A DNA stretch of 40,512 nucleotides from the IMG/VR virus record IMGVR_UViG_3300014613_000044, positions 1-40,512 of that record; one strand, given 5' to 3'. A program made the position numbers and the translations under genes. This DNA is from a virus (Duplodnaviria; Caudoviricetes). Below the pieces are notes generated by a model, which was not told the origin of the DNA, ran no database searches, and worked only from the letters and a program-made list of their open reading frames with translations. This document shows positions 5,936-39,817 of this stretch, in pieces; the stretch's first letter is position 1, and every line of letters begins with the position of its first letter.

Positions 5936-6824
5936 CGCGCCTCGGCGACCGGCGGTCCGATACTATGGGGGGAAGTGGCGGATTGCGCTGTGGATCATCA
6001 GCCACCTGCCCAGGGACCACGAGTGTTACGTGGAGCCGTTCGGCGGGGCGATGAGTGTGTTGTTGCGCAAGTCGCGGTCGCCATTGGAGGTCTATAACGA
6101 TCTCAATGGCGGTGTGGTGAATTTCTTCCAGGTGCTGCGGGAGCAGCCGGACGAGCTGATCAGGGCGATCACGCTCACGCCCTGGTCCCGGGCCGAGTAC
6201 GAGCTGGCCCAGGAGCAGTCCGACGACCCGGTCGAGGAGGCCAGGCGGTTCTACGTCAGCGCCTGGCAGGGGTTCGGAGGCGGACGGGCAAGGTGGCGGC
6301 AGGGGTGGAGATACCAGGTGCGCAGCGGTACGCTCTGGAAACCCAGCTCAATGAGTTTCCGCAACACGGACCACCTGTGGACGATCGTCGACCGGCTACG
6401 GGGGGTGCAGATCGAGTGTAGGGACGCGCTCCAAGTGATCAGGCAATGCGACGCACCGACAACACTGTTCTACCTGGATCCTCCCTACGTGTGGGGGACC
6501 AGGTCAAAGTGGCGCGACATCTACGCCGTGGAGATGTCCGACGAGGACCACGAGGAGCTGGCGGATCTGGTGATGGGTCTGGAGGGGATGGTGCTGATCT
6601 CGGGGTATCCGTCAGGGTTGTATACGTGGTGGTATGAGCGGCGCGGCTGGCGGCGGGTGGAAACGCAGGCGCGGACGAACGGCGGCGGGGCGATCTCCAG
6701 TGTGTCGCGGACTGAGGCGCTGTGGATTTCGCCGAGCGCGCAGCGGGCGCTGGAGCGGGAGAGGATGCCGTTGTTCCACTGGAACGGGCGTTCTATTGAC
6801 GGCGGGGGGGTGAGTGTGGTATAA
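5919..6824 (+). CDS. DNA adenine methyltransferase, Dam/D12 class
   Basis: RYYGGKWR, YVEPFGG, VYNDLN, FYLDPPY motifs. Confidence 0.93.
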   Translation: MDVAIDAPRRPAVRYYGGKWRIALWIISHLPRDHECYVEPFGGAMSVLLRKSRSPLEVYNDLNGGVVNFFQVLREQPDELIRAITLTPWSRAEYELAQEQSDDPVEEARRFYVSAWQGFGGGRARWRQGWRYQVRSGTLWKPSSMSFRNTDHLWTIVDRLRGVQIECRDALQVIRQCDAPTTLFYLDPPYVWGTRSKWRDIYAVEMSDEDHEELADLVMGLEGMVLISGYPSGLYTWWYERRGWRRVETQARTNGGGAISSVSRTEALWISPSAQRALERERMPLFHWNGRSIDGGGVSVV

Positions 6825-6825
6825 T
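6782..6825 (+). promoter_or_regulatory. Sigma70-type promoter with upstream LexA-type box
   Basis: GAAC-GGGC-GTTC 6782-6793; TTGACG 6796-6801, 18-bp spacer, TGn-TATAAT 6820-6825. Confidence 0.75.
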
Positions 6826-6831
6826 GGGCAT

Positions 6832-7004
6832 GAGCAAGGCAGCTCAGTCAGCGGGCTTTTTGGTTCTGCCCGTGCCCCACAACCGTATAGGTTGCGGCCA
6901 GAGATCCGCAACGGCACAAGTGTCCGCTGTGAGTTGCCTTGCTCCCGGGCAGGCGAGCCGTTGCGGATCTCTGGCGTTATGGTACAGATAAAGGAGCAAG
7001 GCAA
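6832..7004 (+). ncRNA. Structured RNA leader / C4-like antisense cassette 1
   Basis: Perfect 19-bp IR 6897-6915/6957-6975. Its loop (6924-6952) is complementary both to upstream 6832-6872 and to the RBS region 6993-7004. Confidence 0.7.
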
Positions 7005-7259
7005 ATGCAGATTCTACAGATTCACCCGGCCTACGCGGATGTCCAACTGACGGCGGATGAGTGCGTGGTGCTGGCGCAGGTGTGCGAGGTGGCGCTGGAG
7101 GATCATTTCCAGGGCCGGGATGAGGCGGAGAGGAAGCGGTACGTGGAGACGGCGGGGGGGTTGTTCAGGGCGGTGGCAGTGGCGGGGCTGGCGCGGCATT
7201 GTATGCGGCCTGCGGAGCAGGTGGAGTTGGATGGGGCGCTGGCGGAGGCGGGGTTGTAA
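7005..7259 (+). CDS. Small hypothetical protein under control of cassette 1
   Basis: AAGGAG RBS, ATG 7005; MQILQIHPAYADVQLTADEC... Confidence 0.75.
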   Translation: MQILQIHPAYADVQLTADECVVLAQVCEVALEDHFQGRDEAERKRYVETAGGLFRAVAVAGLARHCMRPAEQVELDGALAEAGL

Positions 7260-7540: not shown

Positions 7541-7589
7541 AACCGGGTCGAATTGCCCGCTCCATCTTGACTGTCGCCGGTTGGGGGTA

Positions 7590-7640
7590 TTGACAGCAAG
7601 GGACATTTCTGCTATACTGTGTTCAGAACATTAGTTCTGA
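7590..7640 (+). promoter_or_regulatory. Near-consensus promoter with LexA-type operator over the start site (late/lysis promoter)
   Basis: TTGACA 7590-7595, 17 bp, TGn-TATACT 7613-7618; palindrome TCAGAAC-ATTA-GTTCTGA 7623-7640. Confidence 0.85.
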
Positions 7641-7652
7641 CGAGGGCTGACC

Positions 7653-7841
7653 GTGGTAGTTCGCGATGGAGTGCAAGAATATGAGGTCAATGGGCGGGCA
7701 GCGGCGATGGTGCGATATATCGCCAAGCGAGCGACATCGATCAATCGAGTGGGACCGGTGAAGGTTGAGTTGAACGCTGCGGGGCGGAAGGTGAAGGGCC
7801 GAGTGGTAGCGTTCGACGATGGTGAAGAGATCATCCAATAG
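7653..7841 (+). CDS. Small hypothetical protein
   Basis: First ORF after the promoter; GAGGG RBS. Confidence 0.55.
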   Translation: MVVRDGVQEYEVNGRAAAMVRYIAKRATSINRVGPVKVELNAAGRKVKGRVVAFDDGEEIIQ

Positions 7842-11639: not shown

Positions 11640-13635
11640 GACGGGGCAGAGCGGGCTGATTGCGTACAACGGGCTGGTGAGCGAGGCGTACACCGGCAAG
11701 TTGCAGTGGCCAGCAGCGTACGCGATCTACGACGAGATGCGGCGGCGGGATCCGACCATCCGCACGATGTGGGACGCGCTGATCTTGCTGGCCAGGACAG
11801 CGAGCTGGTACGCGGAGCCGGGCGGGGAGGAGGACGGGGATAAGGAAGCGACCGACCATCTCCAGAGTTGTATCGAGGATATGAGTCACCCGATCGAGGA
11901 CTACGTGGAGGATGGGCTCACGTGCGTGCTGATGGGGTGGTCGTGGCTGGAGATCGTGTACAAGCGGCGGGATGATGGCAGCGTCGGCTGGCAGAAGTGG
12001 GCGATGCGGCGGCAATCATCGTTCGAGCGCTGGGAATTCGACAAGACGGGCGGGGTGCAGGGGATGGTCCAGCGGCCAGCGCCCGACTACAGAGAGATCT
12101 CGATCCCGATCGGCAAGAGCCTGCACTTCACATCGCAGCGGGACGGGGGAAACCCGGAGGGCCTCGCGATCTTGGAGTCGGCGTACGAGCCGTGGTATTT
12201 CATCAAGAACCTGCAAATCCTCCAGGGCATCGGCTGGCAGCGGACGTTCGTGGGGCTACCGGTGTTTGAGTTCACGGCCAAGCCGACCGATGATGACAAG
12301 GCCGAGGTGGAGCGGGTGGGCCAGGCGCTGACGGTGGATGCAAAGCAGTACGTCAGTGTACCAGAGTTGGTCAAGTTTCGATTGGAGAGCGCGCAGAACA
12401 GCGGGGCGGAATCGCTCCTCAATACGATCAAATACTACCGGTTGCTCATCCTCCAGATGCTCCTGGCCGATTTTATCAATCTGGGGGTGGGAAGCACCGG
12501 CTCCTGGGCGCTGGGGAGCGACAAGAGCCAGCTTTTCTTGATGGCGGTGGATGGGTTCCTGGACCGGATCGCGACGGTGATCAACCGGTTCGCGGTGCCC
12601 CGGCTGATGGAGTACAACGCGGCATACGCGGATGCGGCGCAGCCGAAGCTGGTGCATACGCCGGTGGAGAAACCGGCGCTGGGGCAGTTGGGGAGCTGGC
12701 TGCAGCAGGTCTCATCGCTGCTGCACTGGACGGAGGAGGATGAGAACTGGATCAGGAAGCGGACGGGGATGCCGACGCTGGCGGAGGGGGGCACGCGGAT
12801 TTCAGGACAAAGCGGATCGGAGGGGGAGGGAGACGAGGAGCCAGAGGAGGGGTTGCCAGGTGAGGAGGGGCTGGCGGAGTTTGCGGCGCAGGAGTCGGCG
12901 CGGGCAGGGCTCGAGCAGAGCCTGCTCGGCGATGTGCGGCGGTTTCTCAATGCACAACTCCGGCGGATCCGTGAGGCGATCGCGCAGGGGCGCAGTGGTC
13001 TCGGGGAGGATGACGGATTCTGGGCGACGGAGGAGGAGAGTTTCCGGGCGACGTTCCTGAACCGATTGACGCAGATTGTGATGCAGTTGGTCGGGATCGC
13101 CGTGGACGATCTGACAGAGACGGTCGGGGGCGGGGCGGACTGGGCGACGGTGAATGCGGATGCGGCGGCCTGGGCGCGGGGGTACGTCGGGCAGCTCATC
13201 ACGCGGGTGACGGAGACGACGCGCGGGGTGGTGCGGGAGGCGGTGGCCAGTTGGGTCGAGACGGGCGCGAAGCTCCCTGATCTGGTGAAGGTGCTGGAGC
13301 CGACGTTCGGGCGGAAGCGGGCGGAGCTGATCAGCGCGACGGAGGTGACGCGGGCCTTCGATGAGGCGAACGACCGGGTGCGACAAAAGATCGGGCTGCC
13401 GGCAGCGAAGATGAAGGCGCCCGCACATCCGGGATGCAGGTGCGCAACGCGGCCGATGCTGTTGCCGAACGGGGAGTGGGTGGTGGTGTGGTACACGGTG
13501 CGGGGGCCGAAGGTGTGCCGGCAGCCGTTGACGACGCCGTGGGGGCGGGTGAACGGGTGCAAGGATCTGGACGGGATGATTGTGTCGGAGAACTATGGCG
13601 GGCAGTATCTGCGGGACGTGAAGGCAGGGATATAA
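11617..13635 (+). CDS. Portal protein (Mu gp29/DUF935-like) fused to a MuF-like head morphogenesis domain
   Basis: Follows TerL; GGNPEGLAILESAYEPWYFIK portal motif. C-terminal RAELISATEVTRA and AHPGCRC are MuF motifs. Confidence 0.85.
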   Translation: MARIDYTETGQSGLIAYNGLVSEAYTGKLQWPAAYAIYDEMRRRDPTIRTMWDALILLARTASWYAEPGGEEDGDKEATDHLQSCIEDMSHPIEDYVEDGLTCVLMGWSWLEIVYKRRDDGSVGWQKWAMRRQSSFERWEFDKTGGVQGMVQRPAPDYREISIPIGKSLHFTSQRDGGNPEGLAILESAYEPWYFIKNLQILQGIGWQRTFVGLPVFEFTAKPTDDDKAEVERVGQALTVDAKQYVSVPELVKFRLESAQNSGAESLLNTIKYYRLLILQMLLADFINLGVGSTGSWALGSDKSQLFLMAVDGFLDRIATVINRFAVPRLMEYNAAYADAAQPKLVHTPVEKPALGQLGSWLQQVSSLLHWTEEDENWIRKRTGMPTLAEGGTRISGQSGSEGEGDEEPEEGLPGEEGLAEFAAQESARAGLEQSLLGDVRRFLNAQLRRIREAIAQGRSGLGEDDGFWATEEESFRATFLNRLTQIVMQLVGIAVDDLTETVGGGADWATVNADAAAWARGYVGQLITRVTETTRGVVREAVASWVETGAKLPDLVKVLEPTFGRKRAELISATEVTRAFDEANDRVRQKIGLPAAKMKAPAHPGCRCATRPMLLPNGEWVVVWYTVRGPKVCRQPLTTPWGRVNGCKDLDGMIVSENYGGQYLRDVKAGI

Positions 13636-17774: not shown

Positions 17775-20537
17775 ATGAAAGGACAAGGACGAGTTCTAAC
17801 GATCGCGGTGCTGCTGGTGTTGCTGGCGGGGTGTGTAGTGTGGCCGCAGCGGCCGCAGTATCAGGAGATGTCGGCGAGCGGGTATCTGTTTCTCTTGGAG
17901 GATGGCGAGGGGACTACGCAGTTCAGCGTGGATGACGACGGGGACGTCTATGCGGCTGGGGGGCTGGATTTTGATGGCGTGCTGGACGTGGACGGTGATG
18001 TTGACCTGGACAATGTGAGTGTCTCAGGTACGCTGGATGTGACCGGGGTGGCGACGTTGGACGGCGGGGCGGATCTGAACGGGACCACGTTGACGGTGGA
18101 CGCGGATGCGGACACGACACTGGTGGCGTCGGACGATGACGTGGTCAGTATGACCCTCGGGGCGGGCGCAGGGTATTTCAATGTGTTGACCGGGAACCTG
18201 AAGGTGGGGGATGGGGATCCAGATGGCACACTCAATGGGGAGGATGTATATGTCGAGGGATTCCTAGAGGTGGACGGGGCGGTGGATCTGGATTCGACAT
18301 TGGATGTGGCGAGCACGCTGGCGGTGGCCGGGAACATCTCCGACGGCGACAGCGCGGTGACGTTCGCGGATAACGTTCTCATCGACGGGGCGACAGATGT
18401 CATCCAGATGACGGTACAGGGGAATGATACACAGACCTCTGCCACTGAGCTGTTTGTGGTGGAGGACTCGACCACGGCTGACCTCTTTTGGGTAACGGCT
18501 ACTGGGGATATGGAATTGAATGGAACGACTCCAACGTTTACCCTTGGAGATGCTGACGAGGAGGATTTCGGTCTCGTCTTCGATGGGGCAGCGCAGGACT
18601 TTTACGCAGGGATATACGACACCGACGATGACTTCCAGATCGGCCTGGGCTCGGCGTTGGGTACTACACCGATCATCGTCTTGGACGAGAATCAGAACGT
18701 GGGGCTGGGGGCGGCGAGTGCAGCCGCGAAGCTGGATGTGACCGGGAATCAGATGATCGATGGTGACACGGACGAGCAGCAGCTCGTTGTCCAGGGCCAC
18801 AGCACACAGACCTCGGCCACGGAACTGTTTGTGGTGGAGGATTCGACCACGGCTGATCTCTTCTTCGTCACGGCAACCGGTGACATGGAACTCAATGGCA
18901 CCACGCCCACGTTCACCGTTGGCGACAGTGACGACGAAGACACCGGGGTGGTGTTCGATGCTGGTCAGCAAGACTTCTACATGGGCGTCTATGACACCGC
19001 TGATGATCTGATCATCGGGTATGGCACTGCAATTGGCACCACAGGCGTCGTCTACATCGACGAGAACCAGGACGTAGGGCTTGGCGCTGCGAGTGCAGGT
19101 TCCAAGCTCGCCGTAACTGGCAATGTGCTGGTTGATGGCGACGCCGATGAACAACAGTTGGTGGTTCAAGGCAATGCTACTCAGACTACCGAGGAACTGT
19201 TCGTGGTAGAGGATTCGACCGAGGCGGACCTGTTCTGGGTCACCGCCACTGGTGACATGGAACTGAATGGAACCTCTCCCCACCTGACGCTTGGCGATGC
19301 TGGGGAAGAGGAAACCGGGGTCATCTTCGATGGGGCAGCGCAGGACTTCTATGCGGGTATCTATGACACTGACGATGACTTCCAGATCGGCCTGGGCTCG
19401 GCGTTGGGTACTACAGCGATCATCGTCCTAGACGAGAATCAGAACGTGGGGCTGGGTGCGGCGAGTGCAGCCGCGAAGTTGGACGTGACCGGGAATCAGA
19501 TGATCGACGGCGACACGGACGAGATACAGTTGACAATCCAGGGCCATAGCACACAGGGAGCCGGGCTTCTGGTCCTGGAAGGGTCGGACGAGACTGACAT
19601 CGTTGTCTTTAGCGAGCCGCCGGCGGCTGCTGGGTCGGGCGATCTGATAGATGTGACGGATACGTTCGTGATCCAGGATGGCACGGACCATCTGATCGGG
19701 ATGGACGTCAATCTGACTGGGGCAAATCACACCGGGGCGGATAACACGCTGACCGGGATTGACCTGAGTTTGATTACGGAGGATGCGCAGTGCACAGAGG
19801 TGGCGATCGACGTCTCGGATACGAGTTGGGACGTGGCGATCGAGGCGGCGGATGTGCCGATCGTGTCGACCGCGGCCGAGTGGATGGAGGATTTCTGGGG
19901 CGATACGATCCACGGTGAGCTGGTGAATGTGGAGGGCACCGATCCGCAGGTCGTGGCGCTGGCGTTGGCGCAGGAACAGTATGGTGTAGGCACTATGGTC
20001 TCTGGTGACGATAATTCGGGGGGCTGTGCAGCCTCCTGCGCGGGGATGTCGTTGGGTTTGCACTGGAGCGCCGCTCAAGGCGGCCTCATCTTTGAGACTC
20101 GATTGCATCTTGACACGTCGATTGCCGATACGGTGATCTGCGCCGGGCTCAGTGATAGCCTCGCGTTGGTGATGCCAGCGACGATCGCTGGCGCGAACTA
20201 CACGACTAATGCTGCCGATGGTGCCTTTTTCTGCTATGACACGGCAGCAGACACCGACGAATGGCACGCGATTGCAGTGGATACCAACGTGGATGCGACC
20301 GGTATCGGTGCGACGGGTGAAGCTCCTGCGTTCGATACGTACCAGGTGCTGCGCATCGAGATCGACGCGGGCGGTGCGGATGCCAAGTTCTACATCGACG
20401 GGACGTTGGTGAAGACGCTGACTGCAAGCGTGGTCACGCCAGCGGTGCTTCTCAGTCCAGTGGTGGTGATCGATACTAACGCAGACGCCAGCAAAACAGT
20501 GGATATCGATTACGTCTACGTCACGGCCAGGAGGTAG
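17775..20537 (+). CDS. 920-aa Asp-rich fibre-repeat protein with lipoprotein signal peptide
   Basis: MKGQGRVLTIAVLLVLLAGC lipobox; three ~125-aa repeats containing NVGLG...AKLDVTG; lectin-like beta C-terminus. Confidence 0.75.
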   Translation: MKGQGRVLTIAVLLVLLAGCVVWPQRPQYQEMSASGYLFLLEDGEGTTQFSVDDDGDVYAAGGLDFDGVLDVDGDVDLDNVSVSGTLDVTGVATLDGGADLNGTTLTVDADADTTLVASDDDVVSMTLGAGAGYFNVLTGNLKVGDGDPDGTLNGEDVYVEGFLEVDGAVDLDSTLDVASTLAVAGNISDGDSAVTFADNVLIDGATDVIQMTVQGNDTQTSATELFVVEDSTTADLFWVTATGDMELNGTTPTFTLGDADEEDFGLVFDGAAQDFYAGIYDTDDDFQIGLGSALGTTPIIVLDENQNVGLGAASAAAKLDVTGNQMIDGDTDEQQLVVQGHSTQTSATELFVVEDSTTADLFFVTATGDMELNGTTPTFTVGDSDDEDTGVVFDAGQQDFYMGVYDTADDLIIGYGTAIGTTGVVYIDENQDVGLGAASAGSKLAVTGNVLVDGDADEQQLVVQGNATQTTEELFVVEDSTEADLFWVTATGDMELNGTSPHLTLGDAGEEETGVIFDGAAQDFYAGIYDTDDDFQIGLGSALGTTAIIVLDENQNVGLGAASAAAKLDVTGNQMIDGDTDEIQLTIQGHSTQGAGLLVLEGSDETDIVVFSEPPAAAGSGDLIDVTDTFVIQDGTDHLIGMDVNLTGANHTGADNTLTGIDLSLITEDAQCTEVAIDVSDTSWDVAIEAADVPIVSTAAEWMEDFWGDTIHGELVNVEGTDPQVVALALAQEQYGVGTMVSGDDNSGGCAASCAGMSLGLHWSAAQGGLIFETRLHLDTSIADTVICAGLSDSLALVMPATIAGANYTTNAADGAFFCYDTAADTDEWHAIAVDTNVDATGIGATGEAPAFDTYQVLRIEIDAGGADAKFYIDGTLVKTLTASVVTPAVLLSPVVVIDTNADASKTVDIDYVYVTARR
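18370..19560 (+). repeat. Three ~375-bp intragenic tandem repeats
   Basis: ELFVVEDST.ADLF.VTATGDMELNGT recurs near 18447, 18822 and 19194. Confidence 0.9.
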
Positions 20538-24234: not shown

Positions 24235-25272
24235 ATGACGATTGGACTTAAGGCGTTTCGGAAGATTCAGGCGGGGAGTGAGGGTGCGACGCCGGGGGTG
24301 GCGGTGGATGCGACGGAGATCCTGTACGGGACACTCAGCACGTATGAGAGTGGCGAGGTGTTGCACCAGCCGGAGGAGGATCGGAACAGCCTGGCGCGGC
24401 ATATGGCGGATGATGAGTTCGTGGGGAAGGAGGCCAAAATCGTGTGGACAGGTGACCTGAACCACCGGCACGCGAATTGGCTGTTGTCGATGGCGATCCG
24501 GGGGAACGTGTCGCCATCACACCCGGATCCGACGAATGAGCCGAACGCATACCTGTGGACGTACGCGCCGACGCTGACGGCGGCGAACACACCAGACATT
24601 GCCAATGGGATCGAGACGTACACGTTCGAATACGGGGACAATCTGCAGGCCTACGAGATCGAGTACTGTTTCGCCACGAAGCTGGAGATCTCGGGGGCGC
24701 CCAACGAGCCGTGTAAGTATAGCTGCGACATCAGCGGGCGGCAGCGGAGTGATGCGGATTTCACGGGCAGTTTGACGGCGCAGTCGGTTCAACTGTTCCC
24801 CTTCAATCTGACGACCTTCTGGGTCGACGACACCGGGGCGGCCATCGGAACGCACCAAAAGACGGGGCTCTTGCGGGCGTTTACGTGGAGCCTCGATACT
24901 ATGTTCCGGGCGTTCTACACGGCGGACGGCAACCTGTACTTTGCCAGCGTTGCGGAGGACCGGAAGAGTGTGGAGTTGACGCTGACGTACGTGCGGAACA
25001 CGGACGCAGACACGGAGCGGACGGCGTACGAGAACCGCACGACCAAGTTCCTGCGGATCAAGCTGTTCGGCCAGACAGAGATGGACAGCGAGCAGAGCAA
25101 TGTGCCGTACCTGGTGCTGGATCAGGCGGTGCGGTATCGCGCCTGGCCGACGTTCGGGGACCAGGACGGCCTGGCGACGGTGCAGGTGAAGGCGGACGCG
25201 GTGTACGATTCAGATTATGCGAAGATGTTCGAGGCGGCATTGTTCACGGATCTGAGCACCTGGCCGACGTAA
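24235..25272 (+). CDS. Major tail tube protein
   Basis: 345 aa, beta-rich, upstream of chaperone and tape measure; strong RBS. Confidence 0.75.
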   Translation: MTIGLKAFRKIQAGSEGATPGVAVDATEILYGTLSTYESGEVLHQPEEDRNSLARHMADDEFVGKEAKIVWTGDLNHRHANWLLSMAIRGNVSPSHPDPTNEPNAYLWTYAPTLTAANTPDIANGIETYTFEYGDNLQAYEIEYCFATKLEISGAPNEPCKYSCDISGRQRSDADFTGSLTAQSVQLFPFNLTTFWVDDTGAAIGTHQKTGLLRAFTWSLDTMFRAFYTADGNLYFASVAEDRKSVELTLTYVRNTDADTERTAYENRTTKFLRIKLFGQTEMDSEQSNVPYLVLDQAVRYRAWPTFGDQDGLATVQVKADAVYDSDYAKMFEAALFTDLSTWPT

Positions 25273-25276
25273 CCAT

Positions 25277-25322
25277 AGTCGCGACGGACGAAAAAATATT
25301 TTCTTTTTGTCCGTCGCGACTA
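25277..25322. terminator. Long hairpin after the tail tube gene
   Basis: TAGTCGCGACGGAC...GTCCGTCGCGACTA perfect 14-bp arms around an A/T-rich core. Confidence 0.6.
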
Positions 25323-25325
25323 GTA

Positions 25326-25368
25326 GACCAGGTGTTCTATTGACGCAGGGTGCGGATTGTGGTAAAAT
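25326..25368 (+). promoter_or_regulatory. Sigma70-type promoter with near-LexA box upstream
   Basis: GACC-AGGT-GTTC 25326-25337; TTGACG 25340-25345, 17 bp, TGn-TAAAAT 25363-25368. Confidence 0.75.
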
Positions 25369-25375
25369 GTTTTCA

Positions 25376-25556
25376 GAGACAGCATCTCTTTACGCAGGAG
25401 GGCCTTTTTTGTGCCTTCTGCTGGACGTGAACAACACTGTGTATCGTTGTGGTCAAAGTGCCACGGTGGATGGGTTGCCCCTCCGAGAGATGCTGTCTCC
25501 AGGAAGGCACTGCCACCGTGGCACTTTGCCGTTCACTCGGAAAAAGGAGACAGCAA
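25376..25556 (+). ncRNA. Structured RNA leader / C4-like antisense cassette 2
   Basis: 16-bp IR 25454-25469/25513-25528. Loop 25479-25510 is complementary to upstream 25376-25418 and to the RBS 25546-25555. Confidence 0.7.
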
Positions 25557-25796
25557 ATGAACGAGGAAGACAGGCAATTGATCGAGGAAGCCAGGGCAAC
25601 CGAGGCAAAATTGCATCAGGCGATCCTGGCACGGGTATCGACAGAGGTCGCCGATATGCTCGAGCTGCAGGAGCGATTGGCAAGCACGACGTCGATGGTG
25701 ATAGGCGAGCGTCTGCCGCCGCTGGGGTTCAAACCGAGCGAGGGGATGCTGGCGTTGCAGAGGGACGTCGGGAAGGCGCACGAGCTGTTGGGCTGA
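25557..25796 (+). CDS. Small hypothetical protein (moron) under control of cassette 2
   Basis: AAGGAG RBS, ATG 25557; own promoter and terminator. Confidence 0.75.
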   Translation: MNEEDRQLIEEARATEAKLHQAILARVSTEVADMLELQERLASTTSMVIGERLPPLGFKPSEGMLALQRDVGKAHELLG

Positions 25797-25816
25797 CAGC
25801 GGCGATCATCGAACAG

Positions 25817-25860
25817 AAGCGGCGTGGGGGGGGGAGCTCCCCTGCGCCGCTTTTTGTTTG
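25817..25860 (+). terminator. Intrinsic terminator of the moron
   Basis: AAGCGGCG...CGCCGCTTTTTGTTT. Confidence 0.7.
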
Positions 25861-34239: not shown

Positions 34240-34590
34240 TTATTTGCCTGTATCCTGTCGCGCCTTCACAAGGCTGCGCATCATGATCAATATACGTGCT
34301 CGATCGCCCTCATCCAAGTTTTTGAACAAGGCGACTGCTTCTGATAGGTCTTCGTCAGTAACTGATCGAGGTGGGATGAAACCCGCTTTTTGGAAGACGT
34401 ATTCAATAGGCAAGTGGAATGTATCAGCTATGGCCTTGCAGGTAGTCTTCGTGGGCGGCAATCGCTCACGTGCGCGTCTACTGATACTGGCGTTGGATAC
34501 CTTGGCCAATTTCTCCACTCGATACCAATTGAGGCCTTGATTATTGAGCTCTTTTTCTGCCCATTCCCAGAATGCATCTATTTTGTTCAT
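34240..34590 (-). CDS. XRE-family HTH repressor, no S24 peptidase domain
   Basis: GLNWYRVEKLAKVSNASISR...CKAIADTFHLPIEYVFQKAG; divergent from the early genes. Confidence 0.8.
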   Translation of the reverse strand: MNKIDAFWEWAEKELNNQGLNWYRVEKLAKVSNASISRRARERLPPTKTTCKAIADTFHLPIEYVFQKAGFIPPRSVTDEDLSEAVALFKNLDEGDRARILIMMRSLVKARQDTGK

Positions 34591-34655
34591 AGACAGTTGT
34601 CTCTGCTTTGGTGACAACTATATCATATTGTTAAGAGATTTTTGACCGAGATACC

Positions 34656-34684
34656 TTGACTTTTGTCTCGTAATATGGTAATAT
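34656..34684 (+). promoter_or_regulatory. Early rightward promoter
   Basis: TTGACT, 17 bp, TGn-TAATAT in an AT-rich divergent region. Confidence 0.7.
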
Positions 34685-34734
34685 TAGATTACTTTCACGA
34701 TTAGTGAGATAGAATGCTGCGGTGGGGGGTAATC

Positions 34735-34914
34735 ATGACAGGGATGAAGACGATTTCGCTCAAAGTATCAGCAGAATTGGATCGCCAGTTGAGGATTGTC
34801 GCGGCGATGCAGGATCAAAACCGTTCCGAATTCATTCGAGAGACATTGGAAAATCGCCTGGCCGAGTTGCAGGAACATCAATCCGACGGGGAAGAGGAGG
34901 CCATCGAGATCTGA
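34735..34914 (+). CDS. CopG/Arc-like RHH protein in the cro position
   Basis: KTISLKVSAELDRQLRIVAAMQDQNRSEFIRETL. Confidence 0.8.
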   Translation: MTGMKTISLKVSAELDRQLRIVAAMQDQNRSEFIRETLENRLAELQEHQSDGEEEAIEI

Positions 34915-39507: not shown

Positions 39508-39511
39508 GTTC

Positions 39512-39817
39512 CATGAACGTTATGAACGTCATGAACGTTGTACAGGGTCACCAGGGGGGGAAATTAAACTTTTACCCCCGTGTGTCCCCGGGGAACGTTC
39601 ATGACGTTCATAACGTTCATGACGCCGTTTTGGGGGTGTTTTTGGGGGTTTCGGTGCAATTTCGGCCTAATTTGTGTGGGGCGCATGTGCAGGGCAACGG
39701 TGGATACACAGGATGATTGTACTTTCTCATGAACGTATGAACGTCATGAACGTATATGTTAGACACGGGGTGTCGGCGCGACTTGGCTCTCATGAACGTA
39801 TGAACGTCATGAACGTA
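39512..39817. repeat. Iteron-like array of 12 ATGAACGT units; putative replication origin
   Basis: Perfect 28-bp IR 39512-39539/39594-39621; perfect 30-bp DR 39725-39754/39788-39817. Confidence 0.85.

Follow-up and report, generated by a model that had tools for sequence, protein, structure and literature searches.

What does a leader of about 180 to 186 nt, assembled from mutually complementary segments, do for a 79-codon gene inserted among the tail genes of a temperate phage? The window analysed here is a whole virus record of 40.5 kb (40,512 nucleotides) from a temperate tailed phage with genes for an integrase, a primase, ParA, two methylases, a terminase, a Mu-like portal, a protease, a capsid protein, a tail tube and a tape measure. 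Between its tail-tube and tail-chaperone-like genes lies a unit of promoter, leader, open reading frame (ORF) and terminator, hereafter cassette 2. The sequence-only reading had described it as the second of two RNA switches with the same architecture and different sequences, inserted as a moron in the tail operon. Its parts, together with the neighbouring features and the companion cassette 1, are as follows.

6782..7259, plus strand: cassette 1, built to the same layout; its a-code differs, its LexA-type box (6782-6793) is perfect, and its 84-aa ORF (7005-7259) belongs to a second family
24235..25272, plus strand: tail tube gene upstream of cassette 2 (Pfam Phage_tube_2, E 0.0015, below the cut-off; homologs 55-74% identical in 9 viral loci)
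25276..25322, no strand assigned: 14-bp inverted repeat in the sequence 3' of the tube stop codon, which does not score as a U-tailed terminator
25326..25337, plus strand: LexA-type box GACC-AGGT-GTTC, which departs from GAAC-N4-GTTC at one position and ends 2 nt upstream of the -35 element
25340..25368, plus strand: sigma-70-type promoter TTGACG-17-TAAAAT with an extended TG (score 10/12)
25376..25390, plus strand: a1, the 5' lock, a small hairpin by itself and complementary to a'
25397..25410, plus strand: d1 (GGAGGG, partner d'), then a run of 6 U
25411..25419, plus strand: b1, partner of b', or of d1 in the free leader
25431..25450, plus strand: conserved ACAA(C/T) motif with the mini-hairpin (ACAA invariant in 8/8 leaders)
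25454..25528, plus strand: long hairpin c (25454-69) / c' (25513-28) around a 43-nt antisense loop
25479..25510, plus strand: contents of the antisense loop, namely d' (25479-84), a' (25485-500) and b' (25502-10)
25546..25555, plus strand: a2, the Shine-Dalgarno (SD) sequence plus spacer GGAGACAGCA, complementary to a'
25557..25796, plus strand: ORF2, 79 aa, acidic (net -5), three helices predicted, without a known family
25815..25854, plus strand: intrinsic terminator ending cassette 2 (a similar hairpin lies 3' of the ORF in the related locus L263)

Transcription is predicted to start near 25375, and a1 begins 6-7 nt past the -10 element in 7 of 8 leaders of the family described below. The inverted repeat at 25276..25322 likely insulates the cassette from read-through of the tail operon, and the ACAA(C/T) motif with its mini-hairpin is a candidate 5' boundary of a released RNA. 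All pairing segments that the sequence-only reading had listed for cassette 2 were located as Watson-Crick stems: 16 bp between c 25454-69 and c' 25513-28, 14 bp between a1 25376-89 and a' 25486-99, 10 bp between a' 25491-500 and a2 25546-55, and 8 bp between b1 25411-18 and b' 25503-10. None of 3000 dinucleotide shuffles of the 186-nt leader held four stems of at least 8 bp, and 54 held one stem of at least 10 bp. The promoter frame, linker, mini-hairpin and start context that had been noticed as common to both cassettes are likewise all in place, and the window contains two copies of the string GTTCTATTGACG, at 6790 and 25334 (0.06 occurrences expected; 0 of 100 shuffles reach two). Two features had escaped that reading, namely the LexA-type box and a further, fourth pairing, d/d', which ends at a conserved U-run.

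The search for relatives established a family of eight distinct leaders with this layout and seven a-codes, all from contigs related to the window phage: cassette 1, cassette 2, L019, L261, L263, L318, L329 and L379. Patterns that left out the a-segments yielded L019 (1 of 14 loci), L261, L263 and L318, while a sequence-blind detector of the a1/a'/a2 plus c/c' layout added L329 and L379, both of which were thus found by requiring the pairings. With strict settings this detector returned family members only in 570 kb, and with loose settings a few chance matches. In one pattern scan 6 of 12 loci had the layout; L259 and L268 merely duplicate the window sequence and were discarded, L265 is the same as L019, and L267 the same as L261. 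Pattern scans over 3 loci, at least 120 loci and at least 119 loci gave no new member among the matches listed, a scan of a genome collection gave none in 45, and another over 12 loci recovered just the three members already known. The scan of 401 genomes produced seven matches versus five in the reversed control, and only one of them, L330, scores with a covariance model. Building such a model and running it on phage and genome sets was the check proposed beforehand. The model, R1, returned L330 from 1 of 151 class genomes (41.9 bits) and again from 1 of 4 order genomes, one weak partial match in 10 tube-bearing genomes, and nothing in 101 genomes, 151 phylum genomes and 7 further records or genomes; R1 also misses L379, so that these blanks are weak.

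L330 was left out of the eight, since it retains the mini-hairpin and the long stem without matching locks. The element lies in an Anaerolineae-class genome (L363:17994-18124 in G070); its loop matches neither its own leader nor the ribosome-binding site (RBS), two more hairpins follow downstream, and it is perhaps a trans-acting relative. Comparison with Rfam covariance models identified no existing family for the RNA of cassette 2: at E<=1 the window gave no C4-type match and only three chance matches to miRNA models, and five homolog loci gave three unrelated matches at E<=5, none of them of the C4 type. A literature search, for which subscription journals were mostly out of reach, found no description of this RNA.

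The eight leaders share one organization. From the predicted start of the transcript it comprises a1 (by itself a small hairpin), d1, 5-8 U, b1, ACAA with the mini-hairpin, c/c', a spacer, a2 and the ATG. The c/c' stem measures 12-20 bp and encloses a loop of 37-44 nt with d', a' and b', a2 always coincides with the SD sequence plus spacer, the run of 5-8 U directly follows d1 in 8 of 8 leaders, and b1/b' retains 5-11 bp in all of them. The spacer between c' and a2 is 13-17 nt long in 7 of 8 leaders and 24 nt with an internal hairpin in L019; it is shortest where c/c' is shortest.

Covariation, counted on MAFFT alignments of seven leaders that include L329, a member picked for its pairing, was found in all three principal stems, with both sides changed in 9 of 15 pairs of a1/a', 10 of 19 of c/c' and 6 of 11 of a'/a2. 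The score was unmatched in 500 shuffles (0/500, in shuffles that ignore relatedness), and slid controls were 34-45% paired versus 94%. G-U pairs are tolerated, and several c/c' pairs are invariant. Stronger evidence than these counts comes from insertions and deletions. Compared with cassette 2, L263 carries one extra base in each of a1, a' and a2; in run X12, contigs have bases inserted in a matched manner after positions 25382, 25492 and 25553, though not demonstrably within one molecule; and the N-terminal extension of the ORF2 homolog P0002, if read back from the protein through a homologous leader, is consistent with a third matched-insertion variant. The earlier claim of a functional RNA with conserved pairing despite changed sequence is thereby borne out for a1/a', a'/a2 and c/c', and the covariation among homologues on which it had been made to depend is present across the seven leaders. 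The leaders constitute a real, uncatalogued family of structured RNAs.

The claim for the ACAAC..GTTG mini-hairpin stands in part: its sequence is conserved, but its pairs do not covary, 3 of 4 being constant, and the fold does not form in L379. The idea that ACAAC-N7-GTTG is a phage-wide operator found no match at the lysis/lysogeny switch region. The point where mini-hairpin and long stem meet has the sequence TGTGGATAA in L318 (G003:C1, about 12250-12270, minus strand), which we take to be a DnaA-box-like 9-mer; it is not retained in other members and is probably due to chance.

The distribution of the cassettes is that of a mobile unit. GC content drops to 0.48-0.57 in cassette 2 versus about 0.60-0.66 in the flanks. 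Among nine related tube loci, five have an empty slot, the following tail gene starting no more than about 30-55 nt downstream, and the remaining four carry different inserted ORFs; a relative of cassette 2 lies directly upstream of the same downstream gene in L263 and another one immediately upstream of the tape-measure gene in phage G002. Because of these empty and differently filled loci and the placements in L263 and G002, we regard the cassette as mobile and the slot as a hot spot. The moron insertion postulated from cassette 2 is thus confirmed, and the mobile family is supported by eight distinct leaders that occupy various slots in related phages. The same tube-to-chaperone slot holds another type of insert, with a promoter, a small ORF and a hairpin and without an RNA leader, in L004 (10090-10420) and L005 (10690-11050), whose ORFs of about 65 aa are homologous to each other.

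The a-code appears to confer specificity. Complementarity between a' and its cognate RBS extends over 10-12 contiguous nucleotides, versus 3-7 for non-cognate combinations of the eight leaders and 4-5 between cassettes 1 and 2, so that their proposed orthogonality is upheld as a prediction. Computed net binding of loop and leader ranges from -14.2 to -20.3 kcal/mol within cognate pairs, compared with -5.2 and -7.0 kcal/mol for cassette 1 against cassette 2; for cassette 2 against L263 a cross-reaction is predicted (-8.4 and -10.4 kcal/mol). The ranking is noisy if the RBS region is paired with the entire loop: in 3 of 8 rows (cassette 1, L329, L318) the cognate partner does not come first, and for cassette 2 it is better by 1 kcal/mol only. 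For the six cassettes tested, no further RBS of the phage that carries them is a target of a', the matches being scattered 9-mers only. Two different codes occur within one phage twice, in the window and in G002. Seven codes in eight leaders and two codes per phage fit selection against cross-talk, which points to an action in trans.

Folding computations suggest an order of events. The free leader adopts a1 and d1/b1 hairpins (7 of 8 cases), the free loop a d'/b' stem with an a' hairpin on top. Leader alone and loop alone each reach -11 to -21 kcal/mol, and their duplex -38.6 to -47.1 kcal/mol; on our reading a1, d1, U-run and b1 are colinear with a', d' and b' around the loop, and the U-run spans the base of the stem. 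Before synthesis of c', the probability of a1:a' is at least 0.92 in 8 of 8 leaders, and afterwards c/c' wins in 6 of 8, the two nested folds differing by 2-12 kcal/mol. The pairing of a' with a2 in the presence of c/c' is a pseudoknot beyond the folding model, and its formation in cis therefore carries no score. In full-length folds the SD sequence is just 0.13-0.59 unpaired even without a', partly through pairing of the U-run with AAAGG upstream of it. The nascent RNA may therefore not be ON, which keeps a default-OFF mechanism alive. The single RNA run with a matching contig covers 25800-25950 only, outside the leader, and is uninformative on it; variants of cassette 1 occur in sediment runs.

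With moderate confidence, we interpret the leader as a self-made antisense repressor that acts in trans and shapes a short, cassette-specific pulse of protein. The promoter would fire, probably more strongly upon LexA cleavage as its box suggests. According to the computed folding, a1 and d1 of the nascent RNA would capture a' and d' ahead of c', thereby keeping a' off the RBS, until synthesis of c' lets the long hairpin take over and display d'-a'-b' as a loop. A host nuclease would probably trim this hairpin to a stable RNA of about 100 nt; RNase III, which is present in 5 of 5 Chloroflexota genomes, is one idea for the enzyme. The released RNA would bind a1-d1-b1 of later transcripts, its a' would cover their RBS, and the d duplex ending at the U-run could serve as a terminator. 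Since the a-code differs between cassettes, each would silence itself only. This reading of a burst followed by shut-off is based on the concerted change of the key (a') and its locks (a1 and the RBS) across the eight leaders.

The most serious competitor is a purely cis-acting timer, in which the transcript is briefly translatable in the a1:a' fold and then refolds or loses its leader, while a' forms a pseudoknot with its own RBS and nothing acts in trans. The narrow spacer between c' and a2, its minimum in the leader with the shortest c/c', and the small energy gap between the nested folds all agree with such a device. It leaves unexplained, however, why there are seven a-codes, each demanding three matched changes, and why the two cassettes of one phage differ in code; we therefore consider it unlikely. 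Trans-acting self-repression is favoured precisely because neither the seven codes nor the code differences between cassettes of the same genome are easily accounted for in the absence of cross-talk. Quite unlikely is an activation of the IsrK type, by which a read-through mRNA would be OFF by default, with a' on the RBS in cis and the U-run on AAAGG, until trans pairing of a' with a short leader RNA that stops at the U-run turns the mRNA ON, once SOS has raised the level of this short RNA. IsrK of Gifsy-1, described as a structural homolog of P4 SeqA in the available part of PMC4825925, is a precedent, the pairing of U-run and AAAGG is present in the consensus fold, and a threshold device would suit a LexA-controlled promoter. 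Yet the leader has no conserved self-terminator, with only weak hairpins upstream of the U-run on our reading, b1 lies beyond the U-run and still keeps its pairing with b' in every leader, and folding predicts the capture of a' in cis during synthesis.

Two further explanations fare worse. The sequence-only reading had considered a type I toxin-antitoxin module, which would retain the prophage in the cell by means of an antitoxin from the opposite strand, and this reading is not supported and very improbable. Toxins of this type are typically small, hydrophobic and membrane-bound, whereas the eight ORFs encode proteins of 61-84 aa with a net charge of -3 to -9, without a membrane helix and with a highest 19-residue hydropathy of 0.56-1.54 (ORF2 0.64). 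The stand-alone mobile cassette, the metastable folds and the kissing-type hairpins do resemble aapA/IsoA, as far as the available part of PMC5416894 describes it, and several members have minus-strand TANNNT hexamers in their mini-hairpin; the best minus-strand promoters, however, score 6-8/12 (cassette 2: 7), and the promoter scan returned none. A feature of the DNA, such as recombination repeats or an operator, or a chance arrangement without RNA function, could account for a1 and a2 as direct repeats and for c/c' as an inverted repeat, the RNA itself being a prediction from the sequence. The tolerated G-U pairs, the compensatory insertions at three sites and the placement of a1 at the predicted start and of a2 on the RBS argue against it, and we regard it as extremely improbable.

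The link to the SOS response emerges from the promoters. Upstream of the -35 element they have GTTC in common, which is half of the GAAC-N4-GTTC box, at -50/-51 from a1. The box is present in five of the seven promoters examined (that of L263 is cut off), being perfect in cassette 1, L261 and L019 and deviating by one mismatch in cassette 2 and L329, and it is absent from those of L318 and L379; the complete phage G003 carries a cassette and no perfect LexA-type box. The five promoter boxes share ancestry. The same box lies upstream of 6 of 7 LexA-domain matches examined in five Chloroflexota genomes, and the available text of PMC3323433 gives this type as common to Firmicutes and Actinobacteria. 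The host is likely a member of the Chloroflexota; tail tube homologs were found in 12 of 401 genomes of this phylum (best identity 39%, in a search confined to it) and in 5 of 401 genomes from the class of an Anaerolineae record, and the runs that hold at least half of the window's words (7 rows) are groundwater metagenomes. Two perfect LexA-type boxes occur in the window, both at promoter-like sites (0.51 expected; 6 of 100 shuffles reach two). One of them lies just past the -10 element (7626-7637) of a promoter at 7588-7841 that precedes a 62-aa ORF upstream of lysis and packaging genes, an arrangement found also in G002 and L267; this ORF is a candidate SOS-induced late regulator or antirepressor.

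Further features of the phage genome are these.

34240..34590, minus strand: likely phage repressor, an HTH protein of 116 aa that has no peptidase domain (Pfam HTH_3 at E 1.8e-4, short of the cut-off; weak PHROG repressor matches; no other domain)
34240-34914: divergent pair of this short HTH protein, which lacks a protease domain, and a ribbon-helix-helix protein, situated beside the integrase and probably forming the lysis/lysogeny switch
39510-39817 and 2749-2840: likely origin iterons, consisting of short iterated repeats, among them an inverted repeat of 52 nt 3' of the primase gene
18447-19493: a unit of about 300 nt, present three times inside a 920-aa gene downstream of the capsid gene; a putative repeated-domain virion protein without a known family
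7248, 11582, 12793, 16251, 17724, 20688, 22493, 24182 and 25861: copies of a dispersed repeat (about 30-49 nt; families D2 and D16) in intergenic positions, upstream of many late-gene ribosome-binding sites

The assignment of the 116-aa protein as the likely repressor is suggested by its position and the weak matches, and the genes of cassettes 1 and 2 lie outside this candidate immunity region. Their proteins, which had been noted as apparently unrelated, indeed represent two families that fail to align (hhalign probability 0.1%). One group consists of ORF2, P0002 and the ORFs of L263 and L019 (26-78% identity), the other of ORF1 and the ORFs of L261, L329 and probably L379; the ORF of L318 was assigned to neither. 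Pfam and PHROG hold no family for the seven cassette ORFs scanned and gave no icd/ant match, each cassette having a single ORF and a terminator. ORF2 has one homolog at 78%, matches only itself among 1.84 billion representatives and reaches 0.85 as its best Atlas value; its structural model (pLDDT 93.7) gave a best Z of 6.2 and no Foldseek match at E<=0.001, and the structure comparison of ORF1 a best Z of 6.1. The regulatory model suggests that the protein is most likely an effector of lysis/lysogeny or host takeover whose action would have to be transient. An antirepressor is our leading guess, offered tentatively and by analogy: it is reasonable because Gifsy prophages pair repressors that lack a cleavage domain with small LexA-controlled antirepressors encoded outside the immunity region, according to the available part of PMC3121763. 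The cassettes are like these antirepressor genes in their small size, their location outside the candidate immunity region, the terminator-like palindrome upstream and a likely repressor without a cleavage domain, and five of seven promoters add a LexA-type box, with one mismatch in cassette 2; no similarity in sequence to the Gifsy genes was found, and the description of the Gifsy genes, in that same part of the source, contains no antisense leader.

The logic of the leader is close to that of the C4 and CI antisense RNAs, and in this respect the suggested immunity module comes near. Cassette 2, however, has its own terminator and its a' no other RBS target in the phage, and it therefore gates one small gene instead of a lytic operon. 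P4 CI has two pairing partners, seqA upstream and seqC downstream, and brings about termination (PMC4825925, available in part, citing Ghisotti 1992, Sabbattini 1995 and Briani 2000). The cassettes share with it an antisense segment inside their own leader, one upstream and one downstream target, and an upstream U-run that suits antisense-dependent termination; they differ in lacking a sequence or Rfam match, in closing a single small gene with a terminator where CI controls a replication operon, and in being mobile, with two cassettes per phage in two phages. C4 of P1/P7 (Rfam RF01695; c4-a1b1 motif in Table 1 of PMC2864571; also PMC6906374) is cut from a longer transcript by RNase P, occludes an RBS and has a variable specificity loop, as stated in the accessible section of PMC5320573. 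Two antisense segments, RBS occlusion and a variable, specificity-determining segment (the latter two predicted in silico for the cassettes) and possibly an antirepressor downstream are common to both. The cassettes, however, lack the three-stem tRNA-like body, carry all antisense segments in one loop on the 12-20-bp stem and gave no icd/ant homolog in the seven ORFs scanned, and their closing stem has 6 bp in cassette 2 and 3-5 bp in the other seven leaders. This lack of a conserved closing stem counts against processing by RNase P. C4 is moreover listed for Proteobacteria, while the host here is likely a member of the Chloroflexota. Given the missing Rfam match and closing stem, we do not assign the cassette RNA to C4/CI, for which the comparison draws on secondary, partly available descriptions.

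Resemblance to the remaining systems is looser. IsrK also has a 5' leader complementary to a downstream, RBS-controlling part of the same transcript, as far as the same section of PMC4825925 goes, but it ends at its own terminator and activates, and the cassettes have neither a conserved self-terminator nor an Rfam match. Metastable mRNA folds and loop-loop pairing are shared with aapA/IsoA, whose antitoxin, in the portion of PMC5416894 cited above, comes from the opposite strand and whose toxin is a 30-aa peptide, in contrast to the mRNA-strand antisense and the soluble acidic protein of the cassettes.

Self-made antisense switches have been well studied only in a few enterobacterial phages. 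The cassette family follows this logic by means of a different fold, in phages whose host is likely a member of the Chloroflexota, as free-standing units with a naturally varied specificity code. Somewhat speculatively, and with more doubt than conviction, it may represent an independently evolved counterpart of C4/CI that dispenses with the tRNA fold and serves as a plug-in module, combining a LexA-controlled promoter, a recodable RNA pulse generator and interchangeable antirepressor or anti-defence genes; its 40-nt loop would wrap the whole leader and supply the missing terminator arm in trans, and at least seven orthogonal codes would give several cassettes, and prophages residing together, separate timing of their SOS output. 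With their sigma-70-type promoters, the cassettes amount to a ready collection of RNA switches predicted to be orthogonal, and they mark two small-protein families without known function as probable effectors that need transience. They also suggest how phages with a non-cleavable repressor might convert the SOS signal into a timed pulse.
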